NCBI GenBank assembly: GCA_016930835.1
Contig: JAFGGA010000133.1
Span: forward strand, 10,343-74,342
Direction of reading: 5' to 3'
Length of the DNA stretch: 64,000 nt
Source: Deltaproteobacteria bacterium
GTDB lineage: Bacteria; Desulfobacterota; DSM-4660; Desulfatiglandales; HGW-15
Below the pieces are notes generated by a model. It was not told the origin of the DNA, searched no databases, and worked only from the letters and a program-made list of their open reading frames with translations. A program made the translations under genes and the position numbers. Numbering within the stretch: the first letter of the stretch is position 1; the number at the start of each line of letters is the position of its first letter. Positions 1,407-61,356 of the stretch are shown here, piece after piece.

Positions 1407-2060
1407 ATGGTTGAAAGGCAATACATTGTTGATGACTTAACCGTAAAAGATACGTGGAGGATGTTCCTTATCCTATCTGAATTTGTCGAAGGGTTTGAGA
1501 CCCTCCCTGATGTCCATCCAGCAGTGTCTATTTTCGGCTCGGCCCGATCCCGTCCGAATAGCCAATCCTATCGGACTACTGAGAAGATATCCCGTCTACT
1601 GGTGGAGAATGGATTTAATATTATTTCCGGAGGCGGACCCGGAATCATGGAAGCGGCCAACAAGGGGGCAGCAGAGGCGGGAGGTAAATCGGTCGGTTTG
1701 CATATTCATCTCCCCAATGAACAACAACCCAATAAATACGCCAATTTACAGCTCAGTTATAAGTATTTTTTTATCAGAAAAGTCATGTTCGTAAAATATG
1801 CGGTAGCCTATGTTATTATGCCCGGAGGGTTCGGCACACTCGACGAGTTGTTCGAAGCCCTCACATTGATACAAACCAAAAGGATAAGATCCTTTCCGGT
1901 CATTTTGGTGGATTCCGAATACTGGAAAGGGCTCATCGATTGGATAAAAAAAACCCAGTTAAAAGAGAACAAGATATCAAAGGAGGATCTTGATATCCTT
2001 CGAGTAGTTGATGATCCTGAAGAGGCTGTGGGGATCATCAAGAGGCGAGTGGTGGTCTGA
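1407..2060 (+). CDS. LOG family protein (TIGR00730-type Rossmann fold, cytokinin riboside 5'-monophosphate phosphoribohydrolase-like)
   Basis: The GGGPGIMEA and PGGFGTLDELFE motifs are present. Confidence 0.85.
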   Translation: MVERQYIVDDLTVKDTWRMFLILSEFVEGFETLPDVHPAVSIFGSARSRPNSQSYRTTEKISRLLVENGFNIISGGGPGIMEAANKGAAEAGGKSVGLHIHLPNEQQPNKYANLQLSYKYFFIRKVMFVKYAVAYVIMPGGFGTLDELFEALTLIQTKRIRSFPVILVDSEYWKGLIDWIKKTQLKENKISKEDLDILRVVDDPEEAVGIIKRRVVV

Positions 2061-2062
2061 TC

Positions 2063-2719
2063 GTGATCACGGATCTAGATCAAAGGGCTGCTGAATTCGG
2101 TTTGGAATTGACGGCCCATCATTTAAACCTCCTCAGTATCTATTTGGATGAATTAGAGTCCTGGAACAAAAAGATGAATCTCATCGGGACGACCTCCCGA
2201 AGGCGAATCATCAATGAACTTGTTCTTGACTCACTCATTCCCGCTCCTTTTCTGCATCATGAGAAAAGAATGCTGGATGTGGGCTCCGGTGGCGGATTTC
2301 CAGGTATCCCCATAAAAATCTATATGCCTCATTTACAAATGACCCTCTTGGAGGCCAATCTAAAAAAAATTCATTTCCTCAAACATGTCATACGGACCTT
2401 GGGACTCAAAAATATCAAGGTGATCCAAGGGCGAATTGAAGTCAGCGGCGAATTGCTTCATCAAGTTGGTTATCATATTGTATCGGCGCGTGCCTTGACG
2501 AATCTGGGTCAAGTTATTATGTGGTGCGCATCCCATCTTGTTTCCAATGGTTTATTGATTACTTATCTGGGGAGGAAAGCTGAGGAAGAACTCCGCCGAT
2601 ATGCAGATATCATTGAAACGAACGCTCTTATAGTATTCCAAAAAATACCTTATGTCCTACCCGGGGAAATAAAAAGAAGTATTGTGATTTTTAAAAAAAT
2701 TGCGTCAAACAGTCATTGA
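2063..2719 (+). CDS. rsmG: 16S rRNA (guanine527-N7)-methyltransferase RsmG
   Basis: Contains the LDVGSGGGFPGIPIKI SAM-binding motif and has GidB-like length. The start codon is GTG. Confidence 0.85.
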   Translation: MITDLDQRAAEFGLELTAHHLNLLSIYLDELESWNKKMNLIGTTSRRRIINELVLDSLIPAPFLHHEKRMLDVGSGGGFPGIPIKIYMPHLQMTLLEANLKKIHFLKHVIRTLGLKNIKVIQGRIEVSGELLHQVGYHIVSARALTNLGQVIMWCASHLVSNGLLITYLGRKAEEELRRYADIIETNALIVFQKIPYVLPGEIKRSIVIFKKIASNSH

Positions 2720-2770
2720 TGGGGTGGGATAAGAGGACCTAAAAATATTTTAGGTCCCCTTTGATGATTT

Positions 2771-2980
2771 TTATTTCTGATATTTAAAAGAGACATTCAC
2801 CCTTGCCCTATAACTTGCCACTTTTCCGGTTTCAATCGTCATGTCCAGTTTAATAATCTCGGCTACTCTTAAGTCCTTTAGGCTTTCCCCGGCCGTTTCA
2901 ACAGCTGTTTTCGCAGCCTCCTCCCATGATGTATCACTCGTTCCCACCAACTCAATGATTTTATAAGTACTGCCTGCCAT
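2771..2980 (-). CDS. Dodecin family protein (69 aa), second paralogue
   Basis: MAGSTYKIIELVGTSDTSWEEAAKTAVETAGESLKDLRVAEI...YRARVNVSFKYQK is dodecin-like. I trimmed the ORF to the ATG at 2980, which is preceded by GGAGGTG. Confidence 0.7.
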   Translation of the reverse strand: MAGSTYKIIELVGTSDTSWEEAAKTAVETAGESLKDLRVAEIIKLDMTIETGKVASYRARVNVSFKYQK

Positions 2981-3476
2981 AATACACCTCCTTAGATTTG
3001 ATATGGTTGATATGAACAAACCCTTTCATCCATTGATGGCCCCACATTTCCATCAGATTATTATTCTAGCAGATTTATGAACATTAATCAAAAATATAAT
3101 TTTCAAGACAAATGATCATGATTTAAAAGATTCGATCCTTTTCCCGCCCAAATAAGCATTATGGAGCATTGATTTATCAAGGTAAGGATTTATACGCCAA
3201 ACCATGCGCGGGTGGTTTTTTCATGGGAGGATATTGCTATTTCTTTAAATAGTGAACAGGGGCTTAAACCAAAGAGATAACACATGGCGCTTCTCTCTTA
3301 GTCAAGCTTTGGCCTATTTTATACGCTATTGTTTAAGAGCGTCAACACTACGATATTCAGCATAGTTTATATTGAATTAGTCATTGACTGCACATATTAC
3401 CTTGACTTTTTATTATTTTTAATATATTATCAATTTCAAAATGTAATTTAAATCAACTCAACAGAAAGGAGAAAGT

Positions 3477-53032: not shown

Positions 53033-53067
53033 CGTTATAAATTTCTAAATTGAGCGATTTTTTTGAC

Positions 53068-54477
53068 ATGCTTCATCCCATACCCCGCATCATCATAGCA
53101 GCGCTAAAAGGCGGATCCGGCAAGACAATGGTTTCATTGGGCCTCGTATCCGTATGGCGGCATATGGGTCATCAGGTTGCGACGTTTAAAAAAGGGCCCG
53201 ATTTTATCGATGCCGGGTGGCTGTCTTTCGCGGCCGGCCGCCCTTGTCACAATCTGGACCCATTTTTGATGTCTGAAGGACAAATCCTCAGGTCATTCCA
53301 ACAACATGCCGCTGATACGCATATTGCACTGATCGAAGGGAATCGCGGTCTTTTTGATGGCCTGGACATTGAGGGGTGTTGCAGCACGGCTGAACTGGGC
53401 CGGCTGACCCAGTCACCGGTGGTGGTCATCGTGGATGTTACCATGACAACCCGGACCGTCGCAGCCCTTATTATGGGTTGTCAACGTTTTGATCCCGCGC
53501 TTCAGCTGGCGGGCGTCATTTTGAACAGGGTTGCAGGCCATCGGCAAGAGACCCTGATCCGAAATGCGATTGAACAATACTGCGGTATAGCTGTTGTGGG
53601 CGCCATACCCAAACTGAAAGAAGATGTCTTTCCTGAACGACACATGGGCTTGGTCCCGCACCAGGAAAGAGATCATGCCCATAAGGCCATCCAATGGGCC
53701 GGTTCGGTGGTTGAAAGATATGTGGATCTGGACACCCTATGGAGAGCGGCCCATGAGTCCAGACCCATAGAGAAAGATCCGGTGGTTTATGAGAAGCAGA
53801 AAAGCAACCCGCCCATATCGGATTCCGTTCGTGTCGGTTATATCATGGATAACGCCTTTTGGTTCTACTACCCCGAGAACCTTAGCCAACTTAAAGAGCT
53901 GGGAGCGGAATTGATTGAAATCAATGCCATGAAGGATGCATGGATCCCTGATCTGGATGCGCTATATATTGGAGGCGGTTTCCCCGAAACCCAGGCCCGG
54001 GTATTGGCAGACAATGGTAGCTTCAGAACATCTTTACTGGAGCGGATTAAGGATGGCCTTCCTGTTTATGCCGAGTGTGGTGGATTGATTTATTTAGGCG
54101 AAGCGCTTCACCAGGGACACAACAGGTTTCCAATGGTGAATGCATTGCCCATTACCTTTGAGATGGGTCAAAAGCCACAGGGACATGGATACACGATTTT
54201 GGAAGTGAATGGGGAAAACCCTTATTTTCCTGTGGGTGAAACAATCAAAGGCCATGAATTTCATTATTCCAGACCCCATATCACCGGTTCGAAAGATCTT
54301 TCATTCGCCTTTGAGGTCAAGAGGGGACACGGAATTGATGGTCAAAAAGACGGTATTTGTATGCAAAATCTCCTGGCGACCTATACCCATATTCATGCGG
54401 GTGGGAATAGAATGTGGGGTGAGGGGTTCATTCAAAGAGCGAGGTGGTTTAAGGATATTGAAAAGAAAAATGCTTGA
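53068..54477 (+). CDS. dsrN: Cobyrinic acid a,c-diamide synthase family protein (DsrN-type siroheme amidase by context)
   Basis: N-terminal P-loop AALKGGSGKT and a C-terminal glutamine amidotransferase domain (YAECGG). It lies between dsrA and dsrC. Confidence 0.8.
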   Translation: MLHPIPRIIIAALKGGSGKTMVSLGLVSVWRHMGHQVATFKKGPDFIDAGWLSFAAGRPCHNLDPFLMSEGQILRSFQQHAADTHIALIEGNRGLFDGLDIEGCCSTAELGRLTQSPVVVIVDVTMTTRTVAALIMGCQRFDPALQLAGVILNRVAGHRQETLIRNAIEQYCGIAVVGAIPKLKEDVFPERHMGLVPHQERDHAHKAIQWAGSVVERYVDLDTLWRAAHESRPIEKDPVVYEKQKSNPPISDSVRVGYIMDNAFWFYYPENLSQLKELGAELIEINAMKDAWIPDLDALYIGGGFPETQARVLADNGSFRTSLLERIKDGLPVYAECGGLIYLGEALHQGHNRFPMVNALPITFEMGQKPQGHGYTILEVNGENPYFPVGETIKGHEFHYSRPHITGSKDLSFAFEVKRGHGIDGQKDGICMQNLLATYTHIHAGGNRMWGEGFIQRARWFKDIEKKNA

Positions 54478-54493
54478 ATCGATTATAAAGAGA

Positions 54494-54522
54494 TTGACAT
54501 TGACCTAAAGATACGATAAGTT
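54494..54522 (+). promoter_or_regulatory. Sigma-70-type promoter candidate for dsrC (TTGACA-17 nt-TAAGTT)
   Basis: Read directly from the sequence. Confidence 0.45.
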
Positions 54523-54585
54523 ATAAAACTTAAGCTCTAACCTGTTAATATAATTAAGGTAATTAATAGAAGGAGGTCATGCGGT

Positions 54586-54903
54586 ATGCCAACGGTAGAA
54601 TTTGAAGGAAACACATTTAACGTAGACGAAGACGGCTTCATTGATGATTTCAATAATTGGAATAAATCATGGGTCCAATACGTTAAAGGAACGGAAGGGA
54701 TCGAAGAATTGACCGATGAGCATTGGAAGGTGATCAACGTACTTCAGGATTATTACCAGAAAAACGGTATCGCTCCTATGGTCCGGATCCTCTCCAAAGT
54801 CACTGGCTATAAATTGAAATACATTTATGAGTTATTTCCCTCCGGCCCCGGTAAAGGCGCCTGTAAGATGGCAGGGCTGCCGAAACCCACGGGCTGCGTG
54901 TAA
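54586..54903 (+). CDS. dsrC: Sulfite reductase substrate/trisulfide carrier DsrC
   Basis: C-terminal arm FPSGPGKGACKMAGLPKPTGCV with both conserved Cys, preceded by an AGGAGG RBS. Confidence 0.95.
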   Translation: MPTVEFEGNTFNVDEDGFIDDFNNWNKSWVQYVKGTEGIEELTDEHWKVINVLQDYYQKNGIAPMVRILSKVTGYKLKYIYELFPSGPGKGACKMAGLPKPTGCV

Positions 54904-54931
54904 TGTAGCCATTATTCTTGGGACGGAAATT

Positions 54932-54971
54932 AAAAGGCACAAGGTTGGGAATCTTTCCTATTGTGCCTTTT
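54932..54971. terminator. Bidirectional terminator between dsrC and the convergent C-N hydrolase gene
   Basis: The stem aaaaggcacaa...ttgtgcctttt is followed by atttt. Confidence 0.6.
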
Positions 54972-55779
54972 ATTTTGAATAAAGTTCCGGCCTTCTGTGG
55001 GGTAAGAAGTGTTTCATCCGATGGTTTCGGATTTCTCTCCAATCATTCTCTTTAAGATCCGTAATAATCATTTTTTCCTGAGTACCACTATAGCTTTCGA
55101 TGATGTTCCCGACTGGATTCAGCACCATAGCAGTGCCCGGGAAAGAAAGATCGTTTTTATACCTGCCCACCTGGTTGCATGCCACTAAAAATACGGAGTT
55201 ATCGAATGCTCGGGCAGGCAAATGTCGGAGCCAGCTCTGGATTTTTTCATCAGGGGTTCCTCGGGGTGAGGCGTGGGGAATGAAGATGATCTCCACGCCT
55301 TCAAGGGCCATCTTGGTGCTGATCTCCGGAAAGTGGGCGTCATAACAAAGCTGGACACCAAATATGACCCCTCCATAAGAATAGGATGACAGATAATTTC
55401 CGGCGTGGAAAAATTTTTTTTCGGGGGGTGACAGGTGGGTCTTTCTGTATATGCCCAAGATTCCTTGGGGGGTTGCCACAACCTGACTGATATATGGCTT
55501 TGCTCGTTGGGTCTTTTCAATCATGCCTGCCAGGATCACCAGGTTTATAGCCCTCGCCATTTGACTTACGCGTTCAATGATTTCTTGGGAGATGGATTCG
55601 GAATAGACATCGCTCGGGTTGTCCAAGATGTAACCCGTGATGGAGAGTTCCGGAAAACAGATGATCTCCACCCCCTTGTCCGCTGCTTTTCGTGAAAAAT
55701 CAGCTATATGGTTTAAATTTCGATCTATCGCATACGGATGGGCTTCCATGCAGACAGCGGCTATTTTCATATTTTTCAT
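54970..55779 (-). CDS. Carbon-nitrogen hydrolase family protein
   Basis: Nitrilase-superfamily layout (CFPELSITGY, LCYDAHFPE). Confidence 0.8.
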   Translation of the reverse strand: MKNMKIAAVCMEAHPYAIDRNLNHIADFSRKAADKGVEIICFPELSITGYILDNPSDVYSESISQEIIERVSQMARAINLVILAGMIEKTQRAKPYISQVVATPQGILGIYRKTHLSPPEKKFFHAGNYLSSYSYGGVIFGVQLCYDAHFPEISTKMALEGVEIIFIPHASPRGTPDEKIQSWLRHLPARAFDNSVFLVACNQVGRYKNDLSFPGTAMVLNPVGNIIESYSGTQEKMIITDLKENDWREIRNHRMKHFLPHRRPELYSK

Positions 55780-55783
55780 AACC

Positions 55784-57364
55784 TTAGCTGTTTCCCCGCT
55801 TCAAGTCCTTGAGGAGTTTGTACTGAACGCTGTCCACCAAGGCCTGCCAACTGGCCTCGATGATATTTTCCGAGACGCCCACCGTTGTCCAGATCTCTTG
55901 GGAGTCCCTTGATTCGATCTTGACCCTGACCTTTGCAGCTGTACCGTCAGTTCCTTCAATAACCCGGACCTTAAAGTCCACCAATTTCATCTCTTGAATC
56001 TGTGGGAAGAAATGGTTCAAGGCCTTTCGTAAGGCGTTGTCGAGGGCGTTTACAGGGCCATCCCCTTCCGCGGCGGTGATCTCCTGCTCATCGCCCACGG
56101 ATACCTTAATGGTGACCTGGGAGGTACTGGGGCCGGACCGGTCTTTCTCAATGATCACACGGAAAGACTCCAGGGTGAAGGGCTCTTTAAATTGCCCGGT
56201 GGCCTTACGAACCAGAAGTTCCAAGGAGCCTTCGGCGGCATCAAATTGATAGCCCTGATCCTCCATGATCTTTATCTCATTTACAATCTTTTTGCTGTCA
56301 TAGCCGTTGCCTCCTAGCTCGATACCCATTTCTTTGGTCTTATATTCAATATTGCTTTTTCCTGATAGATCCGAGACCAATACTCGCCTGCGATTGCCCA
56401 CCCGCTCAGGGTCGATATGTTCATACGCGGAAGGATTCTTTAGGATCGCGCTGACATGGACCCCTGCTTTGTGGGCAAATGCACTCCTGCCTGCAAAAGG
56501 TCTCTGGTTGAGGGGTGGCACATTGGCGATATCGCTCACATAGCGGGACAGCTCGGTCAGGTGCTTGATACTTTCTTCCCGGACACATGAATATCCCATC
56601 TTTAACTGGAGATTTCCCATCACCGCAATCAGATCCACGTTACCGCACCGCTCGCCGTATCCATTGATGGTCCCCTGCACCATCAGAGCGCCACATTGGA
56701 CCGCCATCAAGGAATTGGCCAGGGCCAGGCCGCAATCATTGTGGGTGTGTATTCCGACCGGTAATGGGATATGGGGCATGACATCCGTCATGATGGCCTG
56801 TATCTCGTGTGGAAGGGTCCCTCCGTTCGTATCGCACAAAACGATCACATCGGCGCCACCGTTGATGGCAGCCTTCACGGTCCTTAAGGCGTATTTGGCG
56901 TTATTTTTATAACCATCAAAAAAATGTTCCGCATCATAGATGACCTCTTTATTTTGAGTCTTCAGATAGCGAAGCGTCTCCTCAATCATGGCCAGGTTTT
57001 CATCATTAGAGACACTGAGAATCTCAGTGGCATGCAGGTCCCAGCTTTTCCCAAAAATCGTCACCGTTTGAGTCCCGGCCTTGAGTAAGGCCTTGATGTT
57101 GGGGTCGTTTTCAGGGGTTTTTTGGGCGTGCCGCGTGCTTCCAAAGGCCGTCATGCGAGTATTGGCAAAACCGCTCTTTTGGGTCATTTTAAAAAAACGA
57201 ACATCTTTGGGGTTGGACCCCGGCCAGCCCCCTTCAATATAATGTATGCCGAATTTATCGAGTCGTTTGGCTATCCTAAGTTTATCTTCCGCGGAAAGGT
57301 TTACCTGTTCGCCTTGGGTGCCGTCTCGAAGTGTTGTGTCATATAACATGATTTCTTTAGTCAT
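55784..57364 (-). CDS. cimA: (R)-citramalate synthase
   Basis: LYDTTLRDGTQGEQV...IEGGWPGSNPKD is typical of CimA-type LeuA homologues. I trimmed the start to ATG 57364 because the TTG start in the track lies in the terminator U-tract. Confidence 0.85.
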   Translation of the reverse strand: MTKEIMLYDTTLRDGTQGEQVNLSAEDKLRIAKRLDKFGIHYIEGGWPGSNPKDVRFFKMTQKSGFANTRMTAFGSTRHAQKTPENDPNIKALLKAGTQTVTIFGKSWDLHATEILSVSNDENLAMIEETLRYLKTQNKEVIYDAEHFFDGYKNNAKYALRTVKAAINGGADVIVLCDTNGGTLPHEIQAIMTDVMPHIPLPVGIHTHNDCGLALANSLMAVQCGALMVQGTINGYGERCGNVDLIAVMGNLQLKMGYSCVREESIKHLTELSRYVSDIANVPPLNQRPFAGRSAFAHKAGVHVSAILKNPSAYEHIDPERVGNRRRVLVSDLSGKSNIEYKTKEMGIELGGNGYDSKKIVNEIKIMEDQGYQFDAAEGSLELLVRKATGQFKEPFTLESFRVIIEKDRSGPSTSQVTIKVSVGDEQEITAAEGDGPVNALDNALRKALNHFFPQIQEMKLVDFKVRVIEGTDGTAAKVRVKIESRDSQEIWTTVGVSENIIEASWQALVDSVQYKLLKDLKRGNS

Positions 57365-57382
57365 AAATGATATCCTTTCTGT

Positions 57383-57421
57383 CAAAAAAAAACCGTTATC
57401 AGGTCATCTGATAACGGTTTT
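57383..57421 (-). terminator. Strong intrinsic terminator in the cimA leader (attenuator candidate)
   Basis: On the minus strand aaccguuaucag-augac-cugauaacgguu (10-12 bp) is followed by 7-9 U. It ends ~20 nt before the cimA ATG. Confidence 0.7.
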
Positions 57422-57443
57422 TGGTGAATATTTCTATATATGT

Positions 57444-57569
57444 TTATGCCCTTATCAGGCCTGGTAATCTTCGTCTCTCCATTATGTAACCGAGCAACAG
57501 GGAGGAGCCGATAATCCCTGCTGCCGTAATAATTATGATGATGTTGATGGTTGTGAGGTTTATGAGCAT
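57444..57569 (-). CDS. Ile-rich leader peptide candidate (41 aa, MLINLTTINIIIIITAAGIIGSSLLLGYIMERRRLPGLIRA)
   Basis: An AGGAAG RBS precedes the ATG. The peptide has 11 Ile, including the run INIIIII, and the ORF lies between a promoter and the terminator upstream of cimA. Confidence 0.55.
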   Translation of the reverse strand: MLINLTTINIIIIITAAGIIGSSLLLGYIMERRRLPGLIRA

Positions 57570-57608
57570 TATTTATCTTCCTATGAGTTGTAGTCTTAAG
57601 AATTCGAA

Positions 57609-57637
57609 AATATATATAAGCCGGTAGAGATTGTCAA
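57609..57637 (-). promoter_or_regulatory. Sigma-70-type promoter candidate for the cimA leader (TTGACA-17 nt-TATATT)
   Basis: The reverse complement of 57632-57637 is TTGACA and of 57609-57614 is TATATT. Confidence 0.55.
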
Positions 57638-57709
57638 CAATATTTGCATTCCTTGAATTCCGTATCTTCCCTTCCCCCCCGGTTTTCATGATTTCATGCT
57701 ATGCAATTA

Positions 57710-57736
57710 TTGACATGAATTCCATTCCTTTATAAT
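57710..57736 (+). promoter_or_regulatory. Sigma-70-type promoter candidate (TTGACA-15 nt-TATAAT)
   Basis: Both hexamers are perfect but the spacer is short. It lies upstream of the acyltransferase gene. Confidence 0.4.
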
Positions 57737-57882
57737 AATTGGTTAAGATCCGGATCACCGCAAATGTATTGTTTTTGATGAGGACTATGGGCCTTAAGGA
57801 TGGGAGGATTCGAGCAAGATCCTTGGGTACTTTCTCCCGACCATGAGGGAGAGGAATCTAACAATAGGGCAGGGTTGTGAAT

Positions 57883-58767
57883 ATGAACCATGATGACATC
57901 GCTTCTTTGGCCATGAAATATTATGAAAAGATGAGGGCCAATTATCATAATGATGACAACCATAAGATCACGCCGGAAAATGTATTTCAAAAGGGCATTC
58001 GCCATAATTATGATCTTTTTATGGAATTGGTGGACAGGCTCATGTTGCCTGGGAGTGGCGTCAAAGGTGCGGAGAACCTTCAGGAAACATTTTCCATATT
58101 AAAAGGCGGGGAATCGGTCCTCTTCCTGATGAAACATTCGGGCAATTTTGACGTGCCCTGCATTTATTCCTTATTATCCCGAGAAGGAAATCAATACCAG
58201 GATATCCTGGATCGGTTGGTGTTTATTGCCGGACGGAAACTCAACGAGGATTCACCCATCGTAAAGATCTTTACGGAGGTCTTCAGCCGACTGATCGTCG
58301 TTCCCCATCGCGAGATCCCGAGGGATACCGATCATGAAACCCGCGAGCAGAAGGCCCATCGTCAAGCCTTGGTGAGAGAGGCCACCCGTATCAATAGGGC
58401 ATCCCTGCGTGAGATGATGAGGCTTAAAAAACAGGGCTACATCATCGTGCTTTTTCCCATGGGCGGGCGTCCCAAGCCATGGCTCAATGAACACAATAAT
58501 GGAGTTAAAGAAACTACCTCCTATATGCGGCTCTTCGATTGGGTCCATTTCATCGGAATGACTGGAAACCTCATGCCGGTGGGGGATACGATGCAAGACG
58601 AGAAGCCTCGACGGGACACCATTGTTTTTACCGTATCCGAACCCATCCGAGCCAAGGCCTATCTGGAGGAATCAAGGAGGTTGTTTAAAGGACAAAATGA
58701 GATAGATGATTTCGATCAATTCAATGTGAATAGGGTTATGAAAGCAATTGGGCAGACCCGAGATTAA
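57883..58767 (+). CDS. PlsC-like (lysophospholipid/glycerol-3-phosphate) acyltransferase family protein
   Basis: H-x4-D motif (HSGNFD) and an FPMGGR block resembling FPEGTR. Confidence 0.65.
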   Translation: MNHDDIASLAMKYYEKMRANYHNDDNHKITPENVFQKGIRHNYDLFMELVDRLMLPGSGVKGAENLQETFSILKGGESVLFLMKHSGNFDVPCIYSLLSREGNQYQDILDRLVFIAGRKLNEDSPIVKIFTEVFSRLIVVPHREIPRDTDHETREQKAHRQALVREATRINRASLREMMRLKKQGYIIVLFPMGGRPKPWLNEHNNGVKETTSYMRLFDWVHFIGMTGNLMPVGDTMQDEKPRRDTIVFTVSEPIRAKAYLEESRRLFKGQNEIDDFDQFNVNRVMKAIGQTRD

Positions 58768-58921
58768 TCTCCTTTTTCCAACTTATGTTTACGATCTCAT
58801 CAGGATTTCCTTGGGCTGACCGTTTTCATCCTAAACTCCTTTATTCAATCCTTAGCTGATGGCTGACCGCTGAGTGCTGAAAGCGCTATCCGGAAATTGT
58901 ATTTTCCTGGAGGGTCTTTCA

Positions 58922-60769
58922 TCAAAACGCATTTTCAGCGATTTCCAAGGCGGCCCTTTCCGAACCTTTGATCACTCGGGCCTTGGCCGTTGCCAGGCCC
59001 ACCACTTGGCTGATAAAAAAACGGGCCGAGGCCAGCTTGCCGCTGTAAAATGCGGCGTTGGCATTTCCAGCCACCAATGTATCCAAACCTTTCGTTCCGC
59101 TGATCTTGTTTTCATCCACGAGATCATTTAATCTCTCCTGTGCAATCAAGGCCTGCCACAACAACAGCCAGCCCACGGTGACATCCCCGAAGAGTTCCAG
59201 ATAGGGGTAAGCGGAAAGGGCCAGGAGGTGAAAATCCTTTTTGCGGTGCTTAACCAGAAATTCCGACACATCGGCCAATGCCTTCCACGCCTCCTCCAGG
59301 ATTTTCACATAGGGTGAAAGGGTTTCATGCTTTTTATTCGCTTGCCAAAATGTTTTGATATCTTCCATATGGCCGTTCATGAGGGACTCGAAATCCATTC
59401 CCAGTTTCCGGCCTGCCAGGTCCAGGGCCTGAATCCCGTTGGTCCCCTCAAAGATGGAATGGACCTTCTCATCCCTTAAAAACTGCTCGATGGGATAATC
59501 CTTCATATATCCGTACCCGCCATAGACCTGCATGGCCGTTTCCGTGACCCTGAAACTCAGGTCCGAGCCGTAGGCCTTGGTTACCGGGGTCAAAAATCCG
59601 ATCCGTTTCTCCCATTCATTTTTTTGGTCATCACTCAAGACGATACGCTGTTGGTCAATGCAATAAGAGGTATAGAGGATAAGGGCACGCACCCCTTCCG
59701 TATAGGCCTTCATCTGCAAAAGCATGCGCCGGACATCCGGGTGCCTGATGATGGGGCATTGGGGTGATCCCGGCGGGCTGCCGATAACCGTTCCCTGGAG
59801 GCGCTCCCTGGCATAGACCAGGGCATGAAGATAGGCCGCACTGGCAACTGCCGCCCCATGACGGGCCGCGATTAATCGTGACTCATTCATCATGGTGAAA
59901 AAGATCGGCATTCCGCGGTTTTCCTCACCAACCAGTTCGCCGATGCAGTTGCCATCTTCCCCAAGGCTTAATTGACAAGTGGGTGATCCTTTAATGCCCA
60001 GCTTTTTTTCCACGGCAATGGTCTTGACGTCATTTGATTCCCCAGGGGATCCGTCCGGATTGATTTTGTAGGCCGGGATAAGAAAAAGAGACAGCCCTTT
60101 GGTCCCTGGAGACGCCCCTTTGACCCGGGCCAGGGCCAAGTGGATGATGTTCTTGGTGAGGTCGGTATTGCCGCCCGTGATAAAGACCTTGCTTCCAGTA
60201 ATGGAATAGGTCCCATCCGGATTCCTCTCTGCCACGGTCTTGGTGGCGCCTACATCGCTTCCCGCACCCGCTTCCGTTAGATCCATGGTCCCGGTCCACT
60301 GGCCGGAAAGGATCTTTTCCACATATTTTTTTTTCTGTTCCTCGGAACCGTGCGTGGCGATGAGCAGGGCCGCGCCCCGGGTCATGGCAGCCAGGGTCTG
60401 GAAGGCCAGGTTACCCGCCTCGGCGTATTCATTGGCCGCCATGCCCACCACCATGGGCATGCCTTGGCCGCCGTATTCCCGAGGAATGTCCAGTCTTCGC
60501 CATTCACCCTCATTCCACAAACGCCAGAGTTCATGAAATGATGCGGGGACGTGGACCTTGCCGTCCTTAAAAACAGCGCCTTCTTCATCCCCCTGTTTAT
60601 TGGTGGGCATAATGGCATTTTCCGACAACTTCTTGGCCTCGTTCAGGACCATGTTGTAGATGTCTACATCAAATTCGGAATATAATTCCGATTCCGACAG
60701 CTTGCCGATATCAAGCTGTTCAAAAAGGACAAACTTTTGATCACGTTCATGAACCAATAAATCAACCAT
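58922..60769 (-). CDS. Long-form acyl-CoA dehydrogenase
   Basis: ACAD N-terminal, middle and C-terminal domains plus an extra C-terminal domain (615 aa). The ATG at 60769 follows GAGGAG. The extension in the track runs into a repeat. Confidence 0.9.
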   Translation of the reverse strand: MVDLLVHERDQKFVLFEQLDIGKLSESELYSEFDVDIYNMVLNEAKKLSENAIMPTNKQGDEEGAVFKDGKVHVPASFHELWRLWNEGEWRRLDIPREYGGQGMPMVVGMAANEYAEAGNLAFQTLAAMTRGAALLIATHGSEEQKKKYVEKILSGQWTGTMDLTEAGAGSDVGATKTVAERNPDGTYSITGSKVFITGGNTDLTKNIIHLALARVKGASPGTKGLSLFLIPAYKINPDGSPGESNDVKTIAVEKKLGIKGSPTCQLSLGEDGNCIGELVGEENRGMPIFFTMMNESRLIAARHGAAVASAAYLHALVYARERLQGTVIGSPPGSPQCPIIRHPDVRRMLLQMKAYTEGVRALILYTSYCIDQQRIVLSDDQKNEWEKRIGFLTPVTKAYGSDLSFRVTETAMQVYGGYGYMKDYPIEQFLRDEKVHSIFEGTNGIQALDLAGRKLGMDFESLMNGHMEDIKTFWQANKKHETLSPYVKILEEAWKALADVSEFLVKHRKKDFHLLALSAYPYLELFGDVTVGWLLLWQALIAQERLNDLVDENKISGTKGLDTLVAGNANAAFYSGKLASARFFISQVVGLATAKARVIKGSERAALEIAENAF

Positions 60770-60818
60770 TATCGCACTCCTCTTTTGATCTGTTATTATG
60801 GATGGTCTTATCAAAGAT

Positions 60819-60905
60819 CGGAAAACATCGCCTTTTGCCATTCCAGCCTGCCTGTGCGTGTCCGCACGCAGACAGGTGAAGGCCGGAATCCAGTCTTCAT
60901 CTCAG
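60819..60905. repeat. Family A repeat, partial copy 3 (5' half only)
   Basis: tcggaaaacatcgccttttgccattccagcctgcctgtgcgtgtccgcacgcagacaggtgaaggccggaatccagtctt aligns with 80-165. Confidence 0.75.
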
Positions 60906-61356
60906 GAGTCAGCATTCTACTGAGTGATGATTTTTTATGCGTCCATCATTCATCATGAAAATTTCCAATCAGAAAGTAAATCTTTTTATAAGACAGGCCG
61001 CAAATCTCCCCATTCCCTTCTTATATTCCCGGCCCAATAAGCACAAAATGGGCTTTCACACATCAGATACTAAAATTCCTATCCCATCTTTGTCAAATTG
61101 AAACGGCCGACCCGACCCATAATATTACTGGTGGGTCATTTCCTATTTCATCGGTTGATGATTCGGATTCGAGGGGTCCAAGAGTCAGGGGTTCAAGTGT
61201 TTGTCATTTACTCGAATCTTTGAATCCTTGAAGTCTTGACCTCTTTTCCCCAACCAAAGGGGAGAAGAACCTTATTTGTCAAATAGAAATAATCAACTTA
61301 TGCCCATCCAAAAATACCCCAAGTTCCCTCCCCTTTGAGAGATTGTGTCATAATTC

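Follow-up and report, generated by a model that had tools for sequence, protein, structure and literature searches.

A candidate isoleucine-codon attenuator in the leader of the citramalate synthase gene cimA and its relatives in Desulfobacterota

Citramalate synthase (CimA) opens a threonine-independent route to 2-oxobutyrate and isoleucine (Ile). This citramalate route is the main isoleucine route in many anaerobes, and feedback inhibition of the enzyme has been described in other bacteria. How could the transcription of cimA be adjusted to the isoleucine supply? A stretch of 64,000 nucleotides (nt) from a Deltaproteobacteria bacterium (contig JAFGGA010000133.1; the whole stretch analyzed is referred to here as the window) raises this question, as its cimA gene is preceded by a short Ile-rich upstream open reading frame (uORF) and a hairpin with a run of U. 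In this study, we propose that this element is very probably a ribosome-mediated transcription attenuator of the classical leader-peptide type, responding to charged tRNA-Ile and governing cimA and probably also the CN-hydrolase gene behind it; this reading is drawn from sequence comparison and RNA folding. Sensing of Ile is physiologically sensible, because CimA opens the route that leads to it.

The leader ahead of cimA

The elements of the leader are given below. Coordinates are those of the window, and promoter, leader and cimA are all encoded on the minus strand. The segments numbered 1 to 4 are the RNA strands whose alternative pairing is discussed further on; the fold cited is the minimum free energy (MFE) fold.

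57609-57637, minus strand: sigma-70-type promoter, TTGACA (57637-57632), 17-nt spacer and TATATT (57614-57609), with 11 of 12 consensus matches
57577-57582, minus strand: Shine-Dalgarno (SD) sequence AGGAAG of the uORF, 7 nt ahead of the ATG at 57569 (direct reading of the sequence)
57444-57569, minus strand: leader uORF of 41 codons plus stop, encoding MLINLTTINIIIIITAAGIIGSSLLLGYIMERRRLPGLIRA (sequence reading, ORF list and homologues)
57528-57548, minus strand: putative regulatory Ile codons I8 and I10-I14, AUC AAC AUC AUC AUA AUU AUU (codon list)
57524-57532, minus strand: segment 1 in a weak form, UUAUUA(C)GG, pairing with CCUGAUAA of segment 2 (pairing in the window read from the sequence)
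57494-57524, minus strand: inner hairpin GCAGCAGGGA / UCCCUGUUGC, codons A-A-G ... S-L-L-L (present in the MFE fold and the RNAalifold consensus)
57449-57459, minus strand: segment 2, the antiterminator 5' strand CCUGAUAAGGG, made of the final sense codons of the uORF (sequence reading)
57408-57422, minus strand: segment 3, the terminator 5' arm AAAAACCGUUAUCAG (folding and pattern search)
57384-57402, minus strand: segment 4, the terminator 3' arm CUGAUAACGG (57402-57393) followed by nine U (57392-57384) (sequence, folding and pattern search)
57373-57379, minus strand: SD sequence GAAAGGA of cimA (sequence)
55784-57364, minus strand: cimA, (R)-citramalate synthase of 526 amino acids (aa) (TIGR00977, 755.5 bits versus a cutoff of 450)

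The original prediction for this locus had described a near-consensus promoter, a 41-codon ORF with a good ribosome-binding site and an Ile run, a hairpin with a U run about 20 nt ahead of cimA, and a copy of the terminator 3' arm, matching at 10 of 11 positions, in the last codons of the ORF. All of these are found. The TTGACA/TATATT site ranks best among the promoter-like sites in 54000-61000, and transcription would start near 57602; 35 of 53 homologous loci have a TTGACA-type promoter at a comparable distance 5' of their uORF. The leader peptide carries 11 Ile among its 41 residues, including the run I-N-I-I-I-I-I. Its stop codon (UAA, 57446-57444) lies 2 nt behind the end of segment 2, and a 21-nt spacer separates the end of the uORF from segment 3. 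The terminator stem has a 10-bp G/C-containing core that is lengthened by A:U pairs to 15 bp in the MFE fold, closes a loop AUGAC (57407-57403, minus strand) and leaves 19 nt between the U run and the ATG of cimA. Segment 2 (CCUGAUAAGGG, 57459-57449) is identical to the terminator 3' arm CCUGAUAACGG at 10 of 11 positions. A simple terminator scanner did not list this hairpin, presumably because the A:U extension of the stem consumes part of the U tail; it was established by folding and pattern search. In short, the leader combines the parts looked for in an attenuator: an upstream promoter, a uORF with its own SD sequence, clustered Ile codons, an intrinsic terminator, an antiterminator that shares a strand with it, and a stop codon beside segment 2.

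Such a combination is hardly expected from the composition of the window. Among its 427 short ORFs (25-80 aa), the leader uORF alone reaches at least five Ile per seven residues (it has six), and Ile makes up 27% of the leader peptide versus 8.1% in the long ORFs of the window. The window contains the hairpin core pattern once, versus an expected 0.00 occurrences in its shuffles, and the fold of the 241-nt leader has a z-score of -2.95. A search of the window found neither a second copy of the module nor ilvB, ilvD or leuA.

In the mechanism that we propose, transcription would begin at the TTGACA/TATATT promoter and a ribosome would translate the 41-codon leader. With an ample supply of Ile-tRNA, the ribosome would reach the stop codon and cover segment 2 while segments 3 and 4 are made; the 15-bp hairpin with its nine U would form and transcription would terminate ahead of cimA. 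When Ile-tRNA is scarce, the ribosome would stall at the Ile run about 70 nt upstream, codons I8 and I10-I14 being the proposed stall site. Segment 2 would then be free to pair with the emerging terminator 5' arm, no terminator would be formed and cimA would be transcribed. In most family members, the Ile-codon segment 1 would also sequester segment 2 as long as no ribosome is stalled on it. Stalling, kinetic competition and Ile dependence are the elements of this scheme that we infer; its anatomy, conservation, covariation and pathway logic are what the sequences show. The claim that a ribosome on the stop codon masks segment 2 agrees with the predicted folds of a nascent window transcript ending after segment 3: the helix between segments 2 and 3 (2:3) forms without a ribosome or with a ribosome masking the Ile codons, and is lost only with the ribosome on the stop codon.

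Conservation and pairing of the four segments

Is the arrangement kept among relatives? A protein search with CimA, taking one genome per species, yielded 80 loci. In all seven of the closest genomic CimA loci (66-78% CimA identity), which derive from Desulfobacteraceae, Desulfatiglandales, Desulfobacteria and Syntrophales metagenome-assembled genomes (MAGs), cimA is immediately preceded by a homologous uORF rich in Ile and by a hairpin that has the same core and is accompanied by a U run. The metagenomic close relative L202 bears a homologous leader as well, the order leader-then-cimA is seen in both L201 and L202, and the exact window peptide is listed as P0010, likewise ahead of cimA. The leader is absent from the more distant Desulfobacterales loci examined (L008 onwards, at most 64% CimA identity).

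Some of these distant loci have features of their own. In most of those read, among them L008, L009, L011, L014, L016, L022 and L024, cimA directly follows a conserved gene (about 480 nt upstream of cimA) that by eye reads as ilvC (ketol-acid reductoisomerase, ending in SEMWQAGAAVRSLRPENRKK and a stop), which suggests that cimA lies inside an ilv operon in those Desulfobacterales. A conserved RNA (T-box or similar) 5' of cimA in L008-L026 was suspected because spurious ORFs recurred there, and was rejected, as the region resembles the 3' end of the same by-eye ilvC gene. In L010, a Desulfobacterales MAG, two inverted copies of the Rfam RNA motif Acido-Lenti-1 (1529-1574, plus strand, and 3318-3363, minus strand; 44.1 and 40.8 bits versus a gathering score of 37) flank the cimA homologue.

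A profile built from eight leader peptides matches 117 small proteins of 30-70 aa with the consensus M..NNIIVIISATGILVSLLLLLLVVRLKRPGLIMT, and the few named members among them are hypothetical proteins. A uORF conserved without Ile enrichment, named by the original prediction as an outcome that would speak against it, is not what this family displays: the peptides contain 16.9% Ile, 114 of 117 have at least three Ile within six residues, and the Ile run of the leader peptide is kept across the family. The opposite case, a hairpin persisting without its uORF, almost never occurs. A metagenome scan for the hairpin core with its U tail (CCGTTRYCAG-N3-9-CTGRYAACGG-N-TTTTT) recovered at least 120 loci, and among the 120 matches listed at least 105 have a uORF with four or more Ile ending 10-60 nt 5' of the hairpin.

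The pairing was analyzed in an alignment of 55 homologous leaders (A2), alongside MFE folds of individual leaders; in A2, segment 3 is fixed by the search pattern in most sequences and segment 2 was left free. Segment 1 in most relatives consists of Ile codons, GUCAUUAUCAG (typically GUC AUU AUC AG), with an 11-bp pairing to segment 2, which in the family is the uORF end CCUGAUAAUGAC (C CUG AUA AUG AC, followed by the stop). The arms of the terminator provide segments 3 and 4, and the helix between segments 1 and 2 (1:2) encloses an extra hairpin, GCAACAGGGAUA...UAUCCCUGUUGC. This inner hairpin sits between the two segments and may serve as a pause or scaffold hairpin. The switch between terminator and antiterminator is supported as originally predicted, along with the compensatory stem changes sought in cimA relatives; the design was incomplete in that the pairing of the Ile-codon segment 1 with segment 2, weak in the window, had not been seen.

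In A2, pairing reaches 89.9% in helix 1:2 (whose column pair 45:134 occurs as UA, GC and CG), 93% in the inner hairpin and 98.6% in the terminator. Seven of the ten pairs of the inner hairpin show compensatory changes. Only one pair of the terminator stem, 173:202, is free of the search pattern; here UA, AU and CG all occur, and 21 double changes are counted. Overall, the helices of A2 are 93.4% paired versus 31-54% in slid controls, and none of 500 shuffles of A2 reached the observed covariation score or percentage paired.

The antiterminator formed by the last codons of the uORF is well kept too. Across the 55 leaders, helix 2:3 is paired in 98.9% of cells, and sliding the partner lowers this to 18-43%. 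Codons immediately 5' of segment 2 prolong the helix into the loop of the terminator, a stretch that the terminator itself leaves unconstrained, and matched changes are present in this loop extension (CGAGCC/GGCUCG, CUGGCC/GGCCAG and GGACC/GGUCC). The mean contiguous extension amounts to 3.36 bp versus 2.94 +/- 0.09 bp in permutations, 0 of 5000 of which reach the observed value. Where segment 3 has C for U, segment 2 has the matching G in four of five variants, three of which keep a mismatching A in segment 4. Loci L006 and L007 show concerted changes across segments 1, 2 and 3.

For a terminator stem, the core CCGUUAUCAG...CUGAUAACGG varies unusually little, both between distant loci and between different operons. 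We explain this by the three-way pairing with segments that must stay Ile codons. The sequence CUGAUAA of segments 2 and 4 (57449-57459 and 57393-57402 in the window) is also what we take to be expected for the anticodon loop of tRNA-Ile(GAU), a likeness that is most likely a trivial outcome of complementarity to the AUC codon context.

Several points weigh against an attenuator of this kind. Since segment 3 is mostly fixed by the pattern, the covariation of helix 2:3 comes from the loop, a few variant sequences and the CimA-anchored loci, and the shuffle and permutation controls leave phylogenetic relatedness in. In the window itself, helix 1:2 is weak at -8.9 kcal/mol, and the MFE fold does not form it with the Ile codons. 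The window antiterminator has only 7+2 bp (-13.1 kcal/mol) versus -21.1 kcal/mol for the terminator (3:4), and lacks the loop extension found in most relatives. Equilibrium folds of the full leader with ribosome masks keep the terminator in every case, so that the switch must be kinetic, as in textbook systems; the model would accordingly depend on co-transcriptional kinetics and on coupling of transcription to translation, both of which are presupposed for this lineage. Finally, the leader peptide is hydrophobic and resembles a transmembrane helix, and may have a second role as a peptide. The weak 1:2 helix (approximately UUAUUA(C)GG with CCUGAUAA) and the missing loop extension are shared with the closest relative, L202; relative to the family design, the window copy is pared down.

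Target genes and competing explanations

Does the module belong to cimA? The gene behind the leader in the window is confirmed to encode citramalate synthase, as originally proposed, yet cimA holds no special position, since ilvB, ilvD and leuA share the module. Of the matches listed in the metagenome scan, 47 have cimA as the first downstream gene, 14 have ilvD, 12 have ilvB (for the large subunit of acetolactate synthase) and six have leuA; one representative each of ilvD, ilvB and leuA scored 783-848 bits in an NCBIfam check. These targets tie the module to branched-chain amino acid biosynthesis, and cimA is, as far as sequences tell, one target of a putative branched-chain amino acid attenuation set rather than a special case.

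The same hairpin is occasionally encountered ahead of other genes. Together with a cimA-type leader it precedes an acyl-CoA dehydrogenase gene in L128 (257-441) and L164 (12429-12610) and a citrate synthase gene in L179. In L108, L127, L143 and L150 hairpin and leader precede a gene for a protein of 100-128 aa that is of unknown function; the L108 group has retained the RNA core but encodes a degenerate leader peptide (e.g., MNIIFQYAINIVKDTGIMVNSLWKTHKVERMKLPGLIMP). The position of the module ahead of genes outside the branched-chain pathways may reflect recruitment or decay.

We lean, with some reserve, toward a single modular Ile-sensing cassette behind these loci. All four of its pairing segments would have the Ile-codon repeat AUUAUCAG and the complement of this repeat as their template; the terminator CCGUUAUCAG...CUGAUAACGG would thereby be fixed across Desulfobacterota. 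The cassette would have been recruited before cimA, ilvB, ilvD and leuA and occasionally before non-biosynthetic genes such as those for acyl-CoA dehydrogenase and citrate synthase.

What such a cassette senses may be broader than Ile. It is conceivable, though less likely than not, that the switch is multivalent, stalling at leucine (Leu) and valine (Val) codons past the Ile run also relieving termination, so that the leader reports the general branched-chain supply. Leu accounts for 22.6% and Val for 10.3% of the residues in the 117 peptides, 91 of which have a Leu run of at least four residues; the same leader type stands ahead of leuA in the six loci mentioned; Ile, Leu and Val codons are mixed in the ilvB and ilvD leaders; and helix 1:2 should be impeded by a ribosome halted between its two segments. 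Against this, the 3' arm of the inner hairpin, CCUGUUGCU, accounts for part of the Leu run, Ile codons alone coincide with segment 1, and the Leu run of the window is short (LLL). A combined response to Ile and Leu/Val is therefore best regarded as a reasonable refinement of the Ile attenuator, to which the downstream conserved Leu and Val codons may add Leu and Val sensitivity.

A second explanation takes the uORF as a real gene for a small hydrophobic membrane peptide and the hairpin as its terminator, with cimA transcribed independently or by constitutive readthrough. The peptide indeed resembles one membrane-spanning helix flanked by basic residues on its C-terminal side, and has 117 homologues that gene callers annotate as hypothetical proteins. 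We consider this very unlikely. The 19-nt gap between the U run and the cimA start leaves no room for a separate cimA promoter, and the module is linked to genes of branched-chain amino acid synthesis. Furthermore, conservation tracks the segments paired in RNA. Entropy at the third codon position is 0.69-0.90 bits in segments 1 and 2 and the inner hairpin; for the N-terminus and linker, which are variable at the first and second positions too, it is 1.65-1.72 bits. The compensatory changes of the inner hairpin alter the encoded residues (A-T-G, A-I-G, G-V-G), and the ilvB/ilvD leaders keep segment 2, UUGAUAAUGGC, across different reading frames, both as G-L-I-M-A and when it contains a stop (GGU UGA UAAUGG). 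The low third-position entropy of paired segments and the retention of segment 2 across frames indicate that selection acts mainly on the RNA; a test for peptide selection independent of RNA structure was negative, conservation being confined to the RNA-paired segments.

Least probable by our estimate, to the point of being scarcely tenable, is a trans-acting factor (an RNA-binding protein, or tRNA-Ile in a T-box-like manner) that reads the CUGAUAA/UUAUCAG core and decides termination with the uORF being incidental: the invariance of the core across loci and operons and its likeness to the sequence expected for the tRNA-Ile(GAU) anticodon loop would fit such a factor, but the three-way pairing with the Ile-codon segments explains that invariance, an Ile-rich uORF with an SD sequence accompanies the core in the great majority of matches listed (the at least 105 of 120 given above), no T-box-like specifier or antiterminator architecture is present, and neither T-box nor any other relevant Rfam family matches 54000-61000 of the window even at E-values up to 10. 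The leader is, moreover, only about 220 nt long, and the translated ORF takes up over half of it. The leaders of L001-L020 likewise gave no relevant Rfam hit at the gathering score.

Neighbouring genes, known systems and significance

Downstream of cimA, one more gene is probably co-transcribed and hence placed under the same attenuator:

54970-55779, minus strand: CN-hydrolase (nitrilase-superfamily) gene, with only sub-threshold family hits

It begins 4 nt past the cimA stop, and its NCBIfam hits are all far under the cutoffs. The order cimA-CN-hydrolase is repeated in L202, with the CN-hydrolase gene at 2435-3238 of that locus. On the low-coordinate side of the operon follow a 105-aa ORF (54586-54903, plus strand) and then cobB, encoding cobyrinic acid a,c-diamide synthase (53050-54477, plus strand; 434 bits). 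The contig of P0019, a close relative, has a 105-aa DsrC-family gene and a GATase_3 gene at the corresponding place, which makes the neighbourhood syntenic. On the other side, about 70 nt upstream of the leader promoter, an opposite-facing near-consensus promoter (TTGACA, 18 nt, AATAAT; 11 of 12 matches; 57710-57739, plus strand) faces a 296-aa ORF (57877-58767, plus strand) that has no NCBIfam match, which makes this a divergent promoter region.

The mechanism proposed for cimA is classical, and the leader family is conserved, widespread and apparently undescribed. In E. coli, ilvL and ivbL are short promoter-proximal ORFs rich in Ile, Val and Leu codons, and an antiterminator and a Rho-independent terminator exclude each other according to a 1-2-3-4 segment logic. 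The window family resembles these leaders of ilvGMEDA and ilvBN in its codon-rich short ORF, its exclusive hairpins and its branched-chain target genes. It differs in that it has no sequence or covariance-model similarity to them and targets cimA; E. coli has, to our knowledge, no citramalate route. Moreover, the Ile-codon repeat AUUAUCAG or its complement makes up all four segments of the window family, the terminator core is common to the leaders of different operons, and an extra conserved hairpin lies inside helix 1:2. A functional parallel is provided by E. coli thrL. This leader contains both Thr and Ile codons and regulates thrABC, where the pathway that supplies 2-oxobutyrate for isoleucine begins. 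CimA has the same entry role in the threonine-independent route, so that in both cases an Ile-codon leader stands at a pathway entry; here, Ile (with Leu/Val) codons would control citramalate synthase, and the two leaders show no homology.

Comparable leaders are known from Gram-positive bacteria. The Corynebacterium ilvBNC uORF or ilvB-II motif combines a conserved uORF of branched-chain codons with alternative hairpins, according to the parts of the reports considered here (PMC10272879, PMC11857589), and the portions drawn on for the Staphylococcus aureus ilv-leu attenuator peptide (PMC5794164) and Listeria Rli60 (PMC5864092) place a branched-chain uORF upstream of ilv genes. As far as these portions go, the systems share with ours a conserved branched-chain-codon uORF acting via alternative hairpins and differ in phylum, sequence, structure and target genes, none of them concerning cimA. 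Closer in lineage, Geobacter leuA carries a T-box leader (PMC2700814). It is likewise a terminator/antiterminator RNA switch that reports tRNA charging before a gene of the LeuA/CimA family in a deltaproteobacterial lineage. The T-box binds uncharged tRNA directly and needs no translation, whereas the predicted sensor in the window is a translated Ile-rich uORF. A regulon reconstruction of 2004 for deltaproteobacteria makes no mention of branched-chain attenuators (PMC545781). In line with the supposition that leader-peptide attenuation had not been described for cimA, our full-text literature search found neither a cimA leader peptide nor a branched-chain attenuator described in Desulfobacterota, the 2010 attenuation study of Lopatovskaya et al. 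(cited in PMC4833913) being outside its reach.

In summary, the leader would provide a concrete transcriptional control for the citramalate route to isoleucine, beside feedback inhibition of the enzyme. The Ile-rich uORF in combination with the CCGUUAUCAG hairpin provides a motif for annotation, by which more than 100 'hypothetical proteins' of 30-70 aa can be relabelled as putative leader peptides, and the family is an example of codon identity dictating the sequence of a terminator. On the evidence of these leaders, attenuation by leader peptides in the style of E. coli appears to serve branched-chain amino acid genes in Desulfobacterota as well. If the single-cassette model holds, the cassette would define a regulon for branched-chain amino acid starvation that spans the lineage and is recorded neither in Rfam nor in the literature searched. 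If attenuation is functional, it would also argue for coupled transcription and translation in this poorly studied phylum.

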